Positions 1 through 19,177 of a stretch of DNA of 64,000 nucleotides are shown piece after piece (position 1 is the stretch's first letter; each line of letters begins with the position of its first letter). The DNA is from Candidatus Eiseniibacteriota bacterium. Lineage in GTDB: Bacteria; Eisenbacteria; RBG-16-71-46; JABDJR01. Position numbers and translations under genes: made by a program. The stretch is taken from positions 672,001 through 736,000 of the forward strand of contig CAVXKA010000001.1 of assembly GCA_963762255.1 (NCBI GenBank), written 5' to 3'. The notes below the pieces were generated by a model. It did no database searches and was not told the DNA's origin. It saw only the letters and a program-made list of their open reading frames with translations.

Positions 1-1607
1 CAGCACAGCACACGATCGCGGAGCTGCGTCACCGCGCGGGCGATCGTGCCCCCGACGATCATCGTCGTGCGCGAGGCCACGGTGGGGCCGGAGTCGGGCA
101 CCAGGGAAGTGTCCGCGGGCGCGAACACGACGTCGTCGAGGGTCACCCCCGCCGCCTCCGCGGCGATCATCGTAAGCGCAACCAGCGAGCCCTGGCCGAT
201 GTCGGTCATGGCGGTGAGCACCTCGATGCGCCCGTCGGCGGTGAGCTGCACCGTGACCGGCGAACGCATCTTGTGCTCGCCCTGTCCGGTGAAGCCGGCG
301 CCGTGAAAGTAGAGGCTCATTCCGACGCCGCGCAGCGGCTCGCCGTCCTTGCGCGTGGCGCGCGCCTTCTCGTACTCGAGCCACCGCGCGCGGAAGTTCG
401 TCTTCTTCTCGGCGCGTTCCAGGCAGAGCCGCGCCGAGGCATCGTCCTTGAGCACCTGCCCGGTAGCAAGGCTGTCCCCCGGCCCCACCGCATTGGCCAG
501 GCGCAGGGTCAGGGGATCGATGTCGAGCACCCGTCCGACGCGATCCATGTGCCGTTCGGCGGCGAACATCGTCTGCGGCACGCCGAAGCCGCGGAACGCC
601 CCGTTGGGAGGCGTATGGGTGCGAAGCACGCGACCGCGGATCTTCACGTTCGCGCACCGGTAGGCCCCGGTGGCGTGGAGCACCCCGCGCGAGAGCACGA
701 CCGGCGACAACGTGCGATACGCCCCGCCGTCCAGGTCCGCGTGGATCTCCATCGCGGTCAGCCGTCCGCCCGCGGTCACGCCGGTGCGAAGACGAACGCG
801 CCCCGGGTGTCGCTTGGTGGTGGCCGTGATGTCCTCGTGCCGGTCGTAGACGATCTTGACCGGACGCCCCGACGCCCTCGCGAGAAGCCCGGCATGCGCA
901 GCGAGGATGCTCGGATAGTCCTCCTTGCCGCCGAACCCTCCGCCGATGACGGACGGGCGCACGCGCACCTTGTTCTCGGGAAGGCCGAAGGCGTGCACCA
1001 TCGCGTGATGGATGTAGTAGGGACACTGCATCGAGCCCATCACTTCGAGGGTGCCGTCCGGCTCGAACCAGGCGAGCATCGCCTGGCACTCGATGTAGAT
1101 GTGCTCCTGGTGGCCGCAGAAGTAGACGCCCTCGATGATGTGGGCGGCCTCGGCGAAGCCCCGCGCGAGATTCCCGTGATCGAGGCTCAGCGTGTAGAGC
1201 GGCTCCTCACGCTCGGCGTCCTCCCACGTGAGGACCGGCGGCAGCGGCTCGTACTCGACATCGAAAGCTTCCAGGGAACGCCGCGCCGCATCGCGGGTGG
1301 GCGCCGCCACCAGAGCCACCGCGTCGCCCACATAGCGCACCACGCCCTCGGCGAGCACCGGCCAGGTGTCGTCGATGAGCTGCACGCCGTTGACGCCCGG
1401 GATGTCGCGCGCGGTGACCGCGACCGCGCCCTCGGGGGCGCGCGACGGATCGAAGCGGAGCGAGACGATCCGCGCGTGAGGATGTGGGCTGCGCAGCGTG
1501 GCCCCGAACATCATGCCGGGCAGCGTCAGGTCGTCGGCGTACTTGGCCCCACCTGTCACTTTGGCCCACCCGTCGGGCCGGGGAGGGCTATCTCCTATGC
1601 GAACCAT
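1..1607 (-). CDS. Xanthine dehydrogenase family molybdopterin-binding subunit (3' end runs off window)
   Basis: Translated by hand (absent from ORF track because no stop is reached): MVRIGDSPPRPDGWAKVTGGAKYADDL...LRSPHPHARI, later TDIGQG and DSGPTVASR. GGAGG RBS upstream. Confidence 0.9.
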   Translation of the reverse strand, partial: MVRIGDSPPRPDGWAKVTGGAKYADDLTLPGMMFGATLRSPHPHARIVSLRFDPSRAPEGAVAVTARDIPGVNGVQLIDDTWPVLAEGVVRYVGDAVALVAAPTRDAARRSLEAFDVEYEPLPPVLTWEDAEREEPLYTLSLDHGNLARGFAEAAHIIEGVYFCGHQEHIYIECQAMLAWFEPDGTLEVMGSMQCPYYIHHAMVHAFGLPENKVRVRPSVIGGGFGGKEDYPSILAAHAGLLARASGRPVKIVYDRHEDITATTKRHPGRVRLRTGVTAGGRLTAMEIHADLDGGAYRTLSPVVLSRGVLHATGAYRCANVKIRGRVLRTHTPPNGAFRGFGVPQTMFAAERHMDRVGRVLDIDPLTLRLANAVGPGDSLATGQVLKDDASARLCLERAEKKTNFRARWLEYEKARATRKDGEPLRGVGMSLYFHGAGFTGQGEHKMRSPVTVQLTADGRIEVLTAMTDIGQGSLVALTMIAAEAAGVTLDDVVFAPADTSLVPDSGPTVASRTTMIVGGTIARAVTQLRDRVLC

Positions 1608-15314: not shown

Positions 15315-15433
15315 CACGCCGCGTTCTTGGGGAGTACGCCGTTGACCTGCATAGGTGCCGCCAATACTATCGACTTGTCACGCGGCCTCCCAGGGCTTCT
15401 TTGCCCGGCCGGTCGCGGATGAGGGGACAATCC

Positions 15434-15901
15434 ATGGTTCGCGCAATCTCGGTCCTGCTCGCGGTTCTGGTACTGCTCGGAGTCGGCTGGTATCTCGGCC
15501 ATCGGCCGGTCGCGGCGATGAGAACCACGGCCACCGAACTCGAAGCGGCAACCGTTCGGCGCGCCCAGGACTTCGATGCGAAGGCGCGGGTCCTCGAGGA
15601 GCGCGTCGCCATCGCCGAGGCCAAGGGCCAGCTCTGGCGGGCGCGTGCCGATCTGCTCGTCGCCGCGGGAGACGTGGGGCAGAACAACTACGGCCTCGCC
15701 GCCGAGCGGGCATCGCGGGCCCGCGACCTCGTTACGGGCGCGCTCGCCGCACCGGGGTTCACGATGGACATAGGGGCCATACGCGACATGCTCGATTCGG
15801 CGATCGGCAAGATCGCCGCCCAGGACCGGGACGCCGGCGCCGTGCTCATCCGAGCCGCCACCGAGCTGGGTCGCTTGCTCGAACAGGCCGGCCAGGCCTG
15901 A
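15434..15901 (+). CDS. Membrane-anchored coiled-coil hypothetical protein
   Basis: N-terminal TM segment, helical body, GAGGGG RBS. Confidence 0.7.
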   Translation: MVRAISVLLAVLVLLGVGWYLGHRPVAAMRTTATELEAATVRRAQDFDAKARVLEERVAIAEAKGQLWRARADLLVAAGDVGQNNYGLAAERASRARDLVTGALAAPGFTMDIGAIRDMLDSAIGKIAAQDRDAGAVLIRAATELGRLLEQAGQA

Positions 15902-15945
15902 GCCTCACCCTTACCCCGCCGGGCGGACCGGCCTCGGGAGCTAGG

Positions 15946-16407
15946 TTGCGACTACTGGACTATCTGGATCCCGGCTGCATCGGAGTCGGCCTTCCCTCGG
16001 CGGGAAAACGCGAGACGCTCGCGCGGCTGGTCGATCTCGTGGTCGGGGGCGGGTTGGCGCAGGACAAGGCGCGGCTCCTGGAGGCCCTGGAACAGCGCGA
16101 GCAGGTGGTGTCCACGGGGGTCGGGAACGGCGTGGCGATCCCGCACGCGGATCTTCCGGAGATCGAGGCCCCGCGGCTCGCGCTGGGTCTGTTCCCGGAT
16201 GGCGTGGACTACGATTCGTTGGACGAGGAGCCGGTGTACATCGCGTTCGTGCTCTTGGGAACACCGCGCACACCCGGGCTCCACATGAAGATCCTCGCCC
16301 GCATCGCGCGGTTGAGCAAGGATCCGGACTTCTCGCCGGGGCTTCGCACTGCGAAGAGCCCCGCCGAGGTTTTGGCCGCCCTCGACGTGATCGAGTCGCG
16401 GCATTAG
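15946..16407 (+). CDS. PTS IIA domain protein (EIIA-Ntr/Fru family)
   Basis: REQVVSTGVGNGVAIPHA motif. TTG start after GGGAG. Confidence 0.9.
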   Translation: MRLLDYLDPGCIGVGLPSAGKRETLARLVDLVVGGGLAQDKARLLEALEQREQVVSTGVGNGVAIPHADLPEIEAPRLALGLFPDGVDYDSLDEEPVYIAFVLLGTPRTPGLHMKILARIARLSKDPDFSPGLRTAKSPAEVLAALDVIESRH

Positions 16408-16416
16408 GAGCGCGGG

Positions 16417-16758
16417 GTGAAACTATTCGTCTACGTGCTCAATCGACCGGAGAAACTCGAAGAGGTTCTCGCTGCGTTCGTGGAAATCGGCATCACCGGC
16501 GCGACCGTGGTGGACAGCGTGGGAATGGGCCGGATCATCGCGCAGGACGTGCCGATCTTCGCCAGCTTTCAATCGCTGTTGAGTGCGAGTCGTCCGTACA
16601 ACAAGACCATCCTCTCGGTCATCGACGACGAACCCAAACTCGAGCGCGCGCTGCGTCTGATCGAGGAGATCTGCGGGCCTTTCGGCTCGGCGGGGGCCGG
16701 CATCGCCCTGACGCTTCCCATCGAGCAGGCCTACGGCATCAAGCCCGAATTCAAGTGA
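16417..16758 (+). CDS. P-II-like signalling protein
   Basis: GITGATVVDSVGMG and GAGIALTLPI; 113 aa. Confidence 0.8.
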   Translation: MKLFVYVLNRPEKLEEVLAAFVEIGITGATVVDSVGMGRIIAQDVPIFASFQSLLSASRPYNKTILSVIDDEPKLERALRLIEEICGPFGSAGAGIALTLPIEQAYGIKPEFK

Positions 16759-16764
16759 GGCACC

Positions 16765-17394
16765 ATGAACGACCGACATCACGACGCTCCTGAACACGGA
16801 CCTTCCTCCGGAGATGCCGCATCCAACCGCTTGAGCCGGTTCCTCGCTCTCGTGCTGCGCCATCGCGCCCATCAGTTCGATCTGGCTGTGGACGAGGAGG
16901 GCTTCGTCGCCTTGGATCCGCTCCTGGAAGTGATCCACTCGCAGTCCGGTCTCGATGGAGTCACCCGTGAGGACCTGGAACTTCTGACCCGCGAGGGAGA
17001 CCGCAAGCGCTACGAGATCCGGGGCGACTCCATGCGCGCCACCTACGGACACTCCTTCCGCCGCCCCATCCGCTATCCGGCGGTGGAGCCCCCCGAGCAC
17101 CTCTTCGTCGGCGTTGCCTCCGCACAGGTTCAGGAGGTTCGTCTGCACGGTCTTCGTCCGGAGGGGCGCCAGTACCTCCACCTCTCCGAGCGGGAGGATG
17201 AGGCTCGTGAGGTGGGAAGCCGGCGCAGCGGCGACGCCACCGTGGTTACGGTACTCGCCCTGGAAGCGTCCCAAAGTGGAATTCCATTCCACCGACCCAC
17301 TGACGGCCTCTATCTCGCTCTGCAACTCCCCGCGCGCTTCTTAGATTTGCAGGTGCAGTACGGCCGATCCCCGAAGAAAGGGCGCCGGCGCTAG
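16765..17394 (+). CDS. kptA: RNA 2'-phosphotransferase KptA/Tpt1 family
   Basis: LSRFLALVLRH, KRYE, RATYGHS and RQYLHLS present. HGT motif replaced by VGV. Confidence 0.85.
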   Translation: MNDRHHDAPEHGPSSGDAASNRLSRFLALVLRHRAHQFDLAVDEEGFVALDPLLEVIHSQSGLDGVTREDLELLTREGDRKRYEIRGDSMRATYGHSFRRPIRYPAVEPPEHLFVGVASAQVQEVRLHGLRPEGRQYLHLSEREDEAREVGSRRSGDATVVTVLALEASQSGIPFHRPTDGLYLALQLPARFLDLQVQYGRSPKKGRRR

Positions 17395-17539
17395 CCTCGC
17401 GTCCGCGGGCATGAACCTCGTTCCAGCCGGCGCCAGTCTCGCGTCCGCGGCCCTGGAATCGCCCCAATCGCTTTCTTGGATTTCCAGTTAACGTTTATTG
17501 AATTGGGACCGCGCGACCGCGATCGCCATACTCCCTGCG

Positions 17540-17840
17540 TTGTTGATGTGTGGGGTGGGGTGGGGTGAAACCCGGAGAGTAAACGTCTCCGGTCCCGGAC
17601 CTGACTCGCTGGGACGTACGCCAAATACGGTGGTAGCGGAAGCACTCGGCGTTCACGGAACGAACGGAGTGCGGTCCTCCGACTGGGGATGATGGGGGTT
17701 CGGCGCCCCGGCGAGGGTCCGGGTCTTTCGAAAGGAACGCTGGCCGCTTTCAGCAATCTCCCGAACAGCGCCCTCGGGTAGCCTCGGGAGGACCTTCGCC
17801 GGGCTTAGGCGAGGAAGCGCCGCGTTCCTTTCTGTTTTTT
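17540..17840 (+). ncRNA. Candidate structured ncRNA 3 (two multibranch domains; 5' end approximate)
   Basis: Stems 17594-17613/17707-17723 and 17730-17740/17822-17832 each enclose several hairpins; ends TGTTTTTT. Confidence 0.65.
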
Positions 17841-17946
17841 CAGCCCGATTCCCCTCCATCGCGCGGCCGGATGACTCATTGTCGATTTTGTAGTCTTTTG
17901 ATCAGCATTACGCCGCCGCTTCGTCTTGAACCAAATTATCTGAATA

Positions 17947-17963
17947 TTGGAATTGAGTTAGCG
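17947..17963 (+). promoter_or_regulatory. Possible sigma54-type promoter (TTGG-N10-GC)
   Basis: GG at 17949-17950 and GC at 17961-17962 in an AT-rich spacer; imperfect match to TGGCAC-N5-TTGC. Confidence 0.3.
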
Positions 17964-17977
17964 GGATATTGGATTGG

Positions 17978-18231
17978 TGTGCCCCTGCCCGCCGGATCAT
18001 CATGCGGTCGGGTCGAGGAGAGACAGCCACGATCCCTGCGAGCCCTACGCCGGACTGACAGAGCGGACGCAGGAGTTCGGGACGCTCAGGAGCGAAGGCT
18101 CCTGAAAACGGGATGCATGGGGGTACCGTTCCGAACGGGATGCCGAGGAGATCTCGACGACCGGTCGGCCGCAAGGCCAAGGGCTCGCAAAATCTTTGGG
18201 CTCCTCAGGAAACTGAGGAGCCCTTCTTTTT
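17978..18231 (+). ncRNA. Candidate structured ncRNA 4 (5' end approximate)
   Basis: Long-range stem 18005-18017/18153-18163, hairpins 18086-18105 and ggcc-GCAA-ggcc, plus-strand terminator. Confidence 0.6.
18198..18231 (+). terminator. Intrinsic terminator
   Basis: gggctcctcag-GAAA-ctgaggagccc followed by ttcttttt. Confidence 0.85.
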
Positions 18232-18232
18232 G

Positions 18233-19177
18233 CTATGGATCGGCCGCGAGTTCCGGCGTGTGGCCTCGGCGGGACCCGGCCAGGACTTCCAGCGCCGCCG
18301 GCGCGAACTCCTGCTGCTGCGCCGAGCGAAGCGCCTGCTTGTATCCCTCGAGGATCTGATCCAACTGCGGGATCGCCCCCGGCAGGAGGATCGACGCCGA
18401 CTGCGCGAGCTTGGCCACGCCGCTGTCGTAGAAGCGCCAAGCCACGTGGCTCAGGTCGTTCATAAGTTCGTGAAAGGCGCGCGGAGCGCGGGTCAGACCG
18501 CGCATCTCGGCAAGCTGCGCGGCGGTGAGCCCGTGACGAGCGAGCAGATCTTCGGGGAAGCCCGCCGAGGCGCCGGCGGCATCGAGGTTGGAGAACACTT
18601 CGAGCATGCGGCGAACGATGAACGCGAACACCCCGGGATCGTGGGCGAGCTCCTCGATGTCGAGCTCGGCGGAGACGCGATAGCGACGCACTCCCGGTAC
18701 GGCGAGGATGATCCGCAGGAACACCCACGACTGCGAGACACCGATCACCCGGGCGCGCTCGATCAGACTTTGGAGGTCGGGGATCGGCTCCCCCCCCGCG
18801 ATTTCCATGAGCCCCTGCTGCATGCGCAGCCACGGTGTCATGGGAAGCCCGAATCGGGCCATGGCGTCGGCGAGGGCTACCTGATCGGGGTGAGCCGGAT
18901 CGGGGCGACCCTGGTGGCAGAGGCGAACCCCGTCGCTCCACGCGCGAATCTCGCGCAACGAACTCTCCAGCGATGCGGCGCGTCCGCGGGGGACGGGAAG
19001 GGTCTGGGGCCCGAGAACCCGCATGGAGACGTAGGCGGCATAGAAGGCGTTGCGGCGGCGGGGATCCTCGAGACGGCGCGCGGCGGCAAGGAATGGGGTC
19101 TGGATCGCCTCGAGCTGCCCTTCGCAGGTGCGATAGGCCTCGAGGATCTCCGGTGTGTACTCCAATCGAAGCGGCAC
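18233..19177 (-). CDS. Squalene/phytoene synthase-fold protein with degenerate Asp-rich motifs
   Basis: FLAAARRL..RRNAFYAAY..MR, ALADAMARFGLP and GFPEDLLARHGL present; no DDxxD. Confidence 0.65.
   Translation of the reverse strand: MPLRLEYTPEILEAYRTCEGQLEAIQTPFLAAARRLEDPRRRNAFYAAYVSMRVLGPQTLPVPRGRAASLESSLREIRAWSDGVRLCHQGRPDPAHPDQVALADAMARFGLPMTPWLRMQQGLMEIAGGEPIPDLQSLIERARVIGVSQSWVFLRIILAVPGVRRYRVSAELDIEELAHDPGVFAFIVRRMLEVFSNLDAAGASAGFPEDLLARHGLTAAQLAEMRGLTRAPRAFHELMNDLSHVAWRFYDSGVAKLAQSASILLPGAIPQLDQILEGYKQALRSAQQQEFAPAALEVLAGSRRGHTPELAADP

Follow-up and report, generated by a model that had tools for sequence, protein, structure and literature searches.

A 64,000-nucleotide stretch of DNA from a Candidatus Eiseniibacteriota bacterium (contig CAVXKA010000001.1, positions 672,001 to 736,000; hereafter the window) carries kptA, a gene of the Tpt1/KptA family of RNA 2'-phosphotransferases, and the 838 bases 3' of it, up to a squalene/phytoene-synthase-like gene on the opposite strand (18233-19177), hold no credible gene. 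What do these bases encode? A reading made from the letters alone (the sequence-only reading) had seen in them a novel two-domain noncoding RNA (ncRNA), possibly a mimic of a tRNA or of a Y RNA. This reading is partly supported, although it had missed that the RNA is one of a pair. The predicted transcript, which we call RNA1, is very probably a real, independently transcribed structured small RNA (sRNA) and the sibling of a second RNA, RNA2, which begins about 160 nt further 3'. RNA1 and RNA2 form a new pair of structured, lineage-restricted sibling RNAs beside kptA.

Structure and kinship of the two RNAs

RNA1 is built of a G-rich 5' leader, the hairpin P1 and two branched domains (Table 1). 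All stems named by the sequence-only reading were found where it had placed them, and the minimum free energy (MFE) fold of positions 17540-17850 on the + strand reproduced P1, the entire domain 2 and the two helices that close domain 1. Folded by itself, the sequence exceeds chance only weakly (z = -2.19; 3 of 100 shuffles fold as well), and the reverse strand folds at z = -4.23. In order to compare homologues, eight RNA1 sequences were aligned with MAFFT (alignment A6) and covariation was tested for the helices that MAFFT had left in register, namely P1, the outer stalk helix of domain 1 (H1), the closing stem of domain 2 (P3) and one 3-bp hairpin, together 29 pairs and 226 cells. Within these four helices 98.7% of the 226 cells pair and changes on both sides are seen in 9 of the 29 pairs; none of 500 shuffles matched the observed pairing, the both-side-changed pairs or cells, or the covariation score. 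All 500 shuffles, on the other hand, reached the number of further pair types. As a control, sliding the partners by 1-3 columns left just 22.9-65.8% paired. Conserved pairing among homologues, a check that the sequence-only reading had itself named, was thus borne out.

The helices differ in how they are conserved. One pair of P1 switches between A-U and G-C from one genus to the other, and the loop of this hairpin varies inside the genus. All 9 pairs of H1 are kept in every sequence, 4 of them with changes on both sides, and P3 likewise has 4 both-side changes among its 11 pairs. The inner stalk helix, H2, is unrelated in sequence among lineages; each sequence, folded singly, nevertheless forms it. 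The motif TGAYGGG, located in the domain 1 head, is invariant in A6. The two inner hairpins that had been described there (17642-17672 and 17675-17689) do occur at these coordinates; their conservation stops at the genus. Domain 2 adopts the same three-way junction in all six full-length homologues and contains a conserved loop motif, GCCGGGC..AGG (A6). RNAalifold run on the MAFFT alignment of this domain mis-registered an inner helix and was relied on solely as regards the closing stem and the general architecture. Domain 2 appears to form a terminator-like 3' end, its closing stem doubling as the terminator; a terminator scan did not flag the end of RNA1, whose "loop" is an 80-nt junction. 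Inside the genus, domain 2 is shorter and divergent in the relative G001, and in the relative seen in sequencing run X3 (see below) 29 other letters replace positions 17729-17866, that is, domain 2 and the spacer. It is to be noted that this terminator domain turns over fast within the genus, though it is conserved between the window and the sister genus g4. At the opposite end of the RNA, the leader columns G20-22, G26-28, T29, G30 and G31 of A6 are invariant and unpaired in the centroid fold, and neither fold nor alignment pairs the leader with the 3' tail in a conserved way.

The strand of RNA1 can be read from its pairs. Between the window and G001, 54 consensus pairs could be compared: one-sided changes affect 9 of them and no pair is broken, and 13 of the 54 are G-U in at least one sequence. 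Such pairs would become A-C mismatches on the opposite strand, and RNA1 is therefore assigned to the + strand. The open reading frames that overlap RNA1 are not conserved (E 0.69) and the indels of the alignment do not come in threes, so RNA1 is not coding.

RNA2 is the better conserved of the two. A core of some 110 nt hardly changes from one genus to the other, the interior of RNA2 being far more conserved than that of RNA1, and the RNA2 consensus contains 62 pairs, 8 of them with both-side changes, and a GNRA-capped hairpin. An intrinsic terminator (18198-18223, followed by a T-run) was flagged by the terminator scan. One loop of RNA2 holds two palindromic words. The motif TATTGRATTGG precedes both RNAs, with a -10-like hexamer about 20 bases further on. 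The shorter form TTGRATTRG occurs 20 times in the 4.1-Mb genome, and only the copies at RNA1 and RNA2 bear the AT-rich prefix (TA/AT). We take the copy in front of RNA1 for a putative promoter. Since the motif is conserved before both RNAs, and is kept in the genome G004 although kptA lies about 10 kb away there, RNA1 would form its own transcription unit. Two assignments of the motif to alternative sigma factors, made by eye, were rejected: the GG/GC spacing of sigma-54 fits some of the g4 copies only, and for sigma-32 the spacer is too long.

The kinship of the two RNAs also emerged from a covariance model, R1, that was built from RNA2 sequences alone. R1 scored 160 bits at RNA2 in the window (18009-18191), and its next-best match was RNA1, on the + strand, in all seven loci (12.1-20.9 bits). 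When whole genomes were searched, RNA1 was the top match other than RNA2 in each of the four g4 genomes (E 0.18-0.87). The part of the two RNAs that aligns consists of the P1 hairpin and, immediately next to it, a GC-rich long-range closing helix, which is H1 in RNA1, and in g4 the P1 hairpins of RNA1 and RNA2 carry an identical GAGACA loop. The common upstream motif and the common 5' module identify RNA1 and RNA2 as sibling RNAs: their genes are adjacent, their promoter motif is the same and part of their structure is held in common. The two are probably co-regulated.

Table 1. Features of the kptA-RNA1-RNA2 region, in window coordinates.
Feature	Positions	Strand	Basis
RNA1, predicted transcript, about 300 nt	17540-17848	+	Fold, covariation, metatranscriptome contigs; ends inferred, not mapped
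Promoter-like element of RNA1: TATTGAATTGG (17496-17506) and -10-like CATACT (17527-17532)	17496-17532	+	Conserved in all homologues
RNA1 5' leader, G-rich and single-stranded, with G runs; GGGTGG invariant	17540-17571	+	Alignment A6, centroid fold
RNA1 hairpin P1, 6 pairs	17572-17592	+	100% paired in alignment
RNA1 domain 1: stalk H1 (17594-17601/17716-17723) and H2 (17605-17613/17707-17715), variable G/U-rich branched head	17594-17723	+	
RNA1 domain 2: three-way junction, closing 11-bp stem P3 (17730-17740/17822-17832), then TGTTTTTT (17833-17840)	17730-17840	+	
Promoter-like element of RNA2: TATTGGATTGG (17967-17977) and -10-like CATCAT (17998-18003)	17967-18003	+	Conserved, alignment A4
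RNA2, sibling structured RNA	18009-18232	+	Conserved core, consensus pairs, terminator
kptA, RNA 2'-phosphotransferase, Tpt1/KptA family, syntenic neighbour	16765-17394	+	Pfam PF01885, E 3.8e-24

Relatives, expression and the kptA neighbourhood

The RNA1-RNA2 stretch is single-copy in its own genome. A DNA search of 41 relatives recovered the RNA1 half at 86% identity in G001, a genome of the same genus, on a contig that stops within domain 2 (G001 is 75% complete and the contig breaks inside RNA1), and the RNA2 half in all four genomes of the sister genus g4. When the g4 loci were read, an RNA1 homologue was found just 5' of each RNA2. The order comprises 10 genomes, 6 of which match. Scanning metagenomes with a 20-base word of RNA2 added two contigs, L015, which is nearly the same as the genome G007, and L016, a new g4-like variant, both with the gene order kptA-RNA1-RNA2. 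Searched with R1, 151 genomes of the class (73 genera) yielded RNA2 only in the genome of the window (G000) and in the four g4 genomes, hence in two genera of one family; a 151-genome draw from the phylum gave the same outcome and held only families already present in the class search. In the genome set used, the phylum comprises one class of about 200 species. This model-based distribution concerns RNA2, the RNA1 homologues having been traced as far as BLAST reaches. Searching 206 genomes with a pattern of P1 and H1 (1 mismatch) was discarded: 81 genomes matched, the pattern being too permissive in G+C-rich DNA to say anything on distribution, and the loci it gave (L035-L054) were not used; it also returned the unpublished genome G054, on which none of our claims depends.

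Metatranscriptome contigs hint that both RNAs are expressed. A small share of the stretch was found in 20 of 24 sequencing-run rows (17 recorded as RNA; 15 studies). Four runs, X1, X2, X3 and X19, all in the form of contigs, were aligned to the stretch, the uncovered parts being no evidence of absence; the other rows were taken as evidence neither on habitat nor on expression. A 155-nt contig of the sediment metatranscriptome X1 is 100% identical over 18028-18173, inside RNA2, and a 220-nt contig of the freshwater-sediment metatranscriptome X2 covers 17594-17813, inside RNA1, and joins its domains 1 and 2. The bioreactor metatranscriptome X3 holds a 978-nt contig of a relative that covers 17460-17728 and 17867-18158. 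X19, whose library kind is unknown, spans most of the stretch as three separate pieces. Together with the covariation, the single genomic copy and the failure to match a known RNA family (below), this cover supports the earlier proposal of a novel ncRNA.

The two RNAs keep the company of kptA over most of their range. Orthologues of kptA occur in 8 of the 10 genomes of the order, that is, in all eight of the family to which the window belongs and in neither of the two of the sister family. A protein search of the genome contigs for kptA returned four loci, among which L008, the same contig as G001:C248, was relevant and L009-L011, being distant kptA genes, were not used. The gene lies immediately 5' of RNA1 in 6 of 7 distinct loci (the window, G001, G005, G007/L015, L016 and G006), with a gap of 100-330 nt to the RNA, and the kptA-RNA1-RNA2 block stays together while the genes 5' of kptA and 3' of RNA2 vary by lineage. 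The seventh locus is that of G004, where the 10 kb between kptA and the RNA pair are filled by ordinary genes (a sigma-54 activator, a TPR protein and outer-membrane proteins). The RNA pair was found only in genomes that carry kptA; in the genera g2 and g3 kptA is present and nothing resembling RNA1 was seen behind it.

Possible functions

The relation of the pair to known RNAs was examined with covariance models and gene finders. Rfam 15 gave no match at gathering score in the 64-kb window; at E ≤ 10, four matches were obtained in 17300-18300, all far below their cut-offs, none relevant and none to a tRNA family, the one with the best E falling chiefly on the RNA2 terminator hairpin. The 6S, RNase P and signal recognition particle RNAs and tmRNA were all located elsewhere in the genome and none in the window. 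The sequence-only reading had offered an alternative fold with tRNA-like parts and, from it, a tRNA or YrlA-like Y-RNA mimic. D-loop-like and T-arm-like pieces can indeed be recognized in the window and are kept in G001, and they were missing at the homologous places in the five g4-type homologues, so that this fold holds inside the genus only. A mimic would suit a place beside a gene for an RNA-repair-type enzyme, and tandem RNA genes next to such a gene are the layout of YrlA/YrlB. We nevertheless consider the mimic very improbable. Against a tRNA mimic stand ARAGORN, which found no gene in the window, the lack of any tRNA family in the relaxed Rfam search and the T-arm-like hairpin that g4 does not conserve. 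Against a Y-RNA mimic, the YrlA model (RF02553) produced 11 weak matches genome-wide at E ≤ 10, none at C1:689540-689848 where RNA1 lies, a search for TROVE/Ro (PF05731) gave no match in the 93.63%-complete genome with a positive Deinococcus control, and the 5' and 3' ends of RNA1 do not pair with each other, its conserved long-range helices closing internal domains instead. RNA1 and RNA2 thus resemble YrlA/YrlB in being two tandem structured RNAs of 100-300 nt beside an RNA-repair-type gene, each made of a conserved-helix module and a more variable remainder, and differ from them in that RNA1 has no match to the YrlA model, no conserved tRNA-like domain and no paired ends, while the genome shows no Ro/TROVE gene and has its rtcB about 480 kb away.

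The position of RNA1 directly behind kptA, on the same strand, raises the question whether it is a cis element of the kptA mRNA, either a structured 3' untranslated region (UTR) or a processing product. In favour of such an element, a contig of X19 joins the end of kptA to position 17739. The promoter-like motif conserved between the kptA stop codon and RNA1, the G004 locus where RNA pair and motif persist at 10 kb from kptA, and the short RNA-library contigs of X1 and X2, which stop short of kptA, all speak against this explanation, and we hold it to be unlikely. A riboswitch or other cis leader was also rejected: in the window as well as in L004, RNA2 comes next after RNA1, and an oppositely oriented gene comes after RNA2.

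A link to the KptA protein itself can be envisaged in several forms. KptA could remove or ADP-ribosylate a phosphate carried by RNA1 and/or RNA2, either an internal 2'-phosphate or a 5'-phosphate end, or the RNAs could tether the enzyme in the way that bacterial Y RNAs hold enzymes associated with Ro. The persistence of kptA immediately upstream in six of seven loci whose flanking genes differ, and the restriction of the RNAs to genomes with kptA, would both follow. Bacteria lack tRNA splicing of the fungal type, and what Tpt1/KptA does in them is an old open question. However, the evidence is gene order alone, within one family, and chance is unlikely to separate neighbours that lie only 100-330 nt apart; the ordinary genes in the G004 interval, the occurrence of kptA without a detectable RNA in g2 and g3 and the canonical promoter that kptA has of its own in G001 and L015 do not favour a functional tie. 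Such a link is therefore improbable in our judgement, and slightly more so in its strongest form, in which RNA1 and RNA2 would be the natural RNA partners of bacterial KptA, losing a phosphate or being ADP-ribosylated by it, or recruiting it through their common hairpin/helix module. Should it hold, bacterial Tpt1/KptA would for the first time be placed in a cellular RNA context. Natural bacterial 2'-phosphate substrates of KptA were reported as not known, while archaeal KptA erases a tRNA 2'-phosphate (PMC9095486). A literature search brought up no paper that connects kptA with a structured ncRNA, though one may exist.

A trans-acting role is our best guess, and the composition of RNA1 offers a lead. 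The RNA contains 35-43% G versus 22-29% C. TGAYGGG occurs 3-9 times per kb in RNA1, the genome-wide density being 0.12 per kb; for GGTGG the two values are 7-21 and 2.45 per kb. Both motifs fall within the leader and the domain 1 head; in three g4 lineages this G-rich head is expanded. GGUGGUGAU was also considered, by eye only, as an anti-Shine-Dalgarno decoy; no analysis supports this reading, which was dropped. In our preferred explanation, to which we assign a probability of about 0.35, RNA1 and RNA2 are sibling structured RNA genes whose products serve as scaffolds or decoys. Both RNAs would act in trans in ribonucleoproteins, a common partner binding the module of P1 and closing helix that is present in both; tandem siblings with a common 5' module point to a common binding partner. 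The head of RNA1 would display G-rich single-stranded repeats (UGAYGGG and GGUGG), in a number that depends on the lineage, as titrating "sponge" RNAs do, and these repeats might sequester a protein or a C-rich RNA. For RNA1, this trans-acting mechanism taken by itself remains tentative, its odds lying clearly below even.

Slightly less probable still is that RNA1 is a base-pairing sRNA, with the invariant unpaired G-rich leader (GGG..GGGTGG) as a seed for C-rich sites in mRNAs and with the domains providing stability and a terminator. In its favour, the centroid fold leaves the leader single-stranded, the leader's G positions are invariant across both genera, and RNA1 has a promoter-like element and a terminator-like end of its own. 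On the other hand, a seed sRNA needs far less structure than RNA1 has, with its length of about 300 nt and its two elaborate domains that covary, and the same G-rich motif recurs within domain 1.

Several points weigh against the picture of independently expressed sibling RNAs acting as scaffolds or decoys. A base-pairing seed would account for the conserved single-stranded leader just as well; the repeats of RNA1 are G-rich and not of the GGA-in-loop type found in CsrA sponges, and the candidate partner protein is still hypothetical. The homologues in A6 are related and come from two genera only, so that the support is lower than the covariation counts suggest. Domain 2, short in G001 and missing in the X3 relative, is not essential everywhere. 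A scan for consensus sigma-70 promoters found none at RNA1. In G000, R1 gives RNA1 just 12.5 bits, outside E ≤ 10 genome-wide. Assembled contigs show neither ends, strand nor level, and carry-over of DNA is possible; the 978-nt contig of X3 in particular spans both RNAs and 364 nt upstream and would also fit read-through or DNA.

Comparison with better-known systems places the scaffold or decoy reading in context. GlmY/GlmZ, RsmY/RsmZ and OmrA/OmrB are sibling sRNA pairs, and RNA1 and RNA2 likewise form a paralogous pair with a common promoter motif, a common 5' module and different bodies. They have no sequence or family relation to those pairs, are much larger and more structured, and hold in common a hairpin with a long-range helix rather than a seed. 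CsrB/RsmZ and 6S RNA are abundant stand-alone RNAs that titrate proteins by repeated or mimic sites, to which the lineage-dependent number of G-rich repeats in RNA1 bears a likeness; the RNA1 repeats are UGAYGGG and GGUGG in an unstructured head instead of GGA in hairpin loops, and the genome's own 6S matches lie elsewhere, two of them above the cut-off (G000:C2:243811-243989 with 87.3 bits and G000:C1:103435-103588 with 49.6 bits). The raiA, ROOL, OLE and GOLLD RNAs are large structured bacterial ncRNAs of unknown function. Complex, multi-domain, covarying folds and a lineage-restricted occurrence are features that RNA1 and RNA2 have in common with them, whereas neither RNA matches any of these families in Rfam 15 and their distribution (two genera among 151 class genomes) is much narrower.

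These results add two covariation-supported RNA families from a poorly studied phylum, tandem siblings with a common 5' module. Their persistent place behind kptA provides a testable lead on the role of Tpt1/KptA in bacteria. If the association turned out to be merely positional, a clean pair of new structured sRNAs, seen in metatranscriptomes, would remain. We note separately that the top YrlA match in the genome, 32.6 bits against a cut-off of 69, is situated at G000:C3:699237-699384, with the tmRNA gene about 4 kb away; this match may represent a tRNA-like element.

Observations on the flanking sequence

The sequence 5' of kptA was compared between loci. In the window, kptA starts 6 bases after a P-II-like gene; just 5' of it (15355-16758, + strand) are encoded a 350-aa protein whose C-terminal part is a PTS EIIA-2 domain and a P-II-like protein of 113 aa, a gene pairing that was not found 5' of kptA in G001. 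In contrast to the window, kptA has a canonical sigma-70-type promoter of its own both in G001 (TTGACG-17-TAGAAT; L002, about 1040-1100, minus strand) and in L015 (TTGACA-17-TAATCT; reverse complement, about 40-75). Even inside the genus, then, the context 5' of kptA is not conserved.

At the other end of the gene, a 30-nt tandem direct repeat (17384-17413 and 17426-17455, 87% identical and 42 nt apart) duplicates the final kptA codons and the bases after them. In the relative represented by run X19 the end of kptA is joined straight to position 17422, so that one copy of the repeat is apparently missing there. Finally, the entire kptA-RNA1-RNA2 block is present twice in G006, at C1:18502-19919 (L007) and C6:87714-89131 (L006) with identical scores, reflecting either a recent duplication or redundancy of the assembly.
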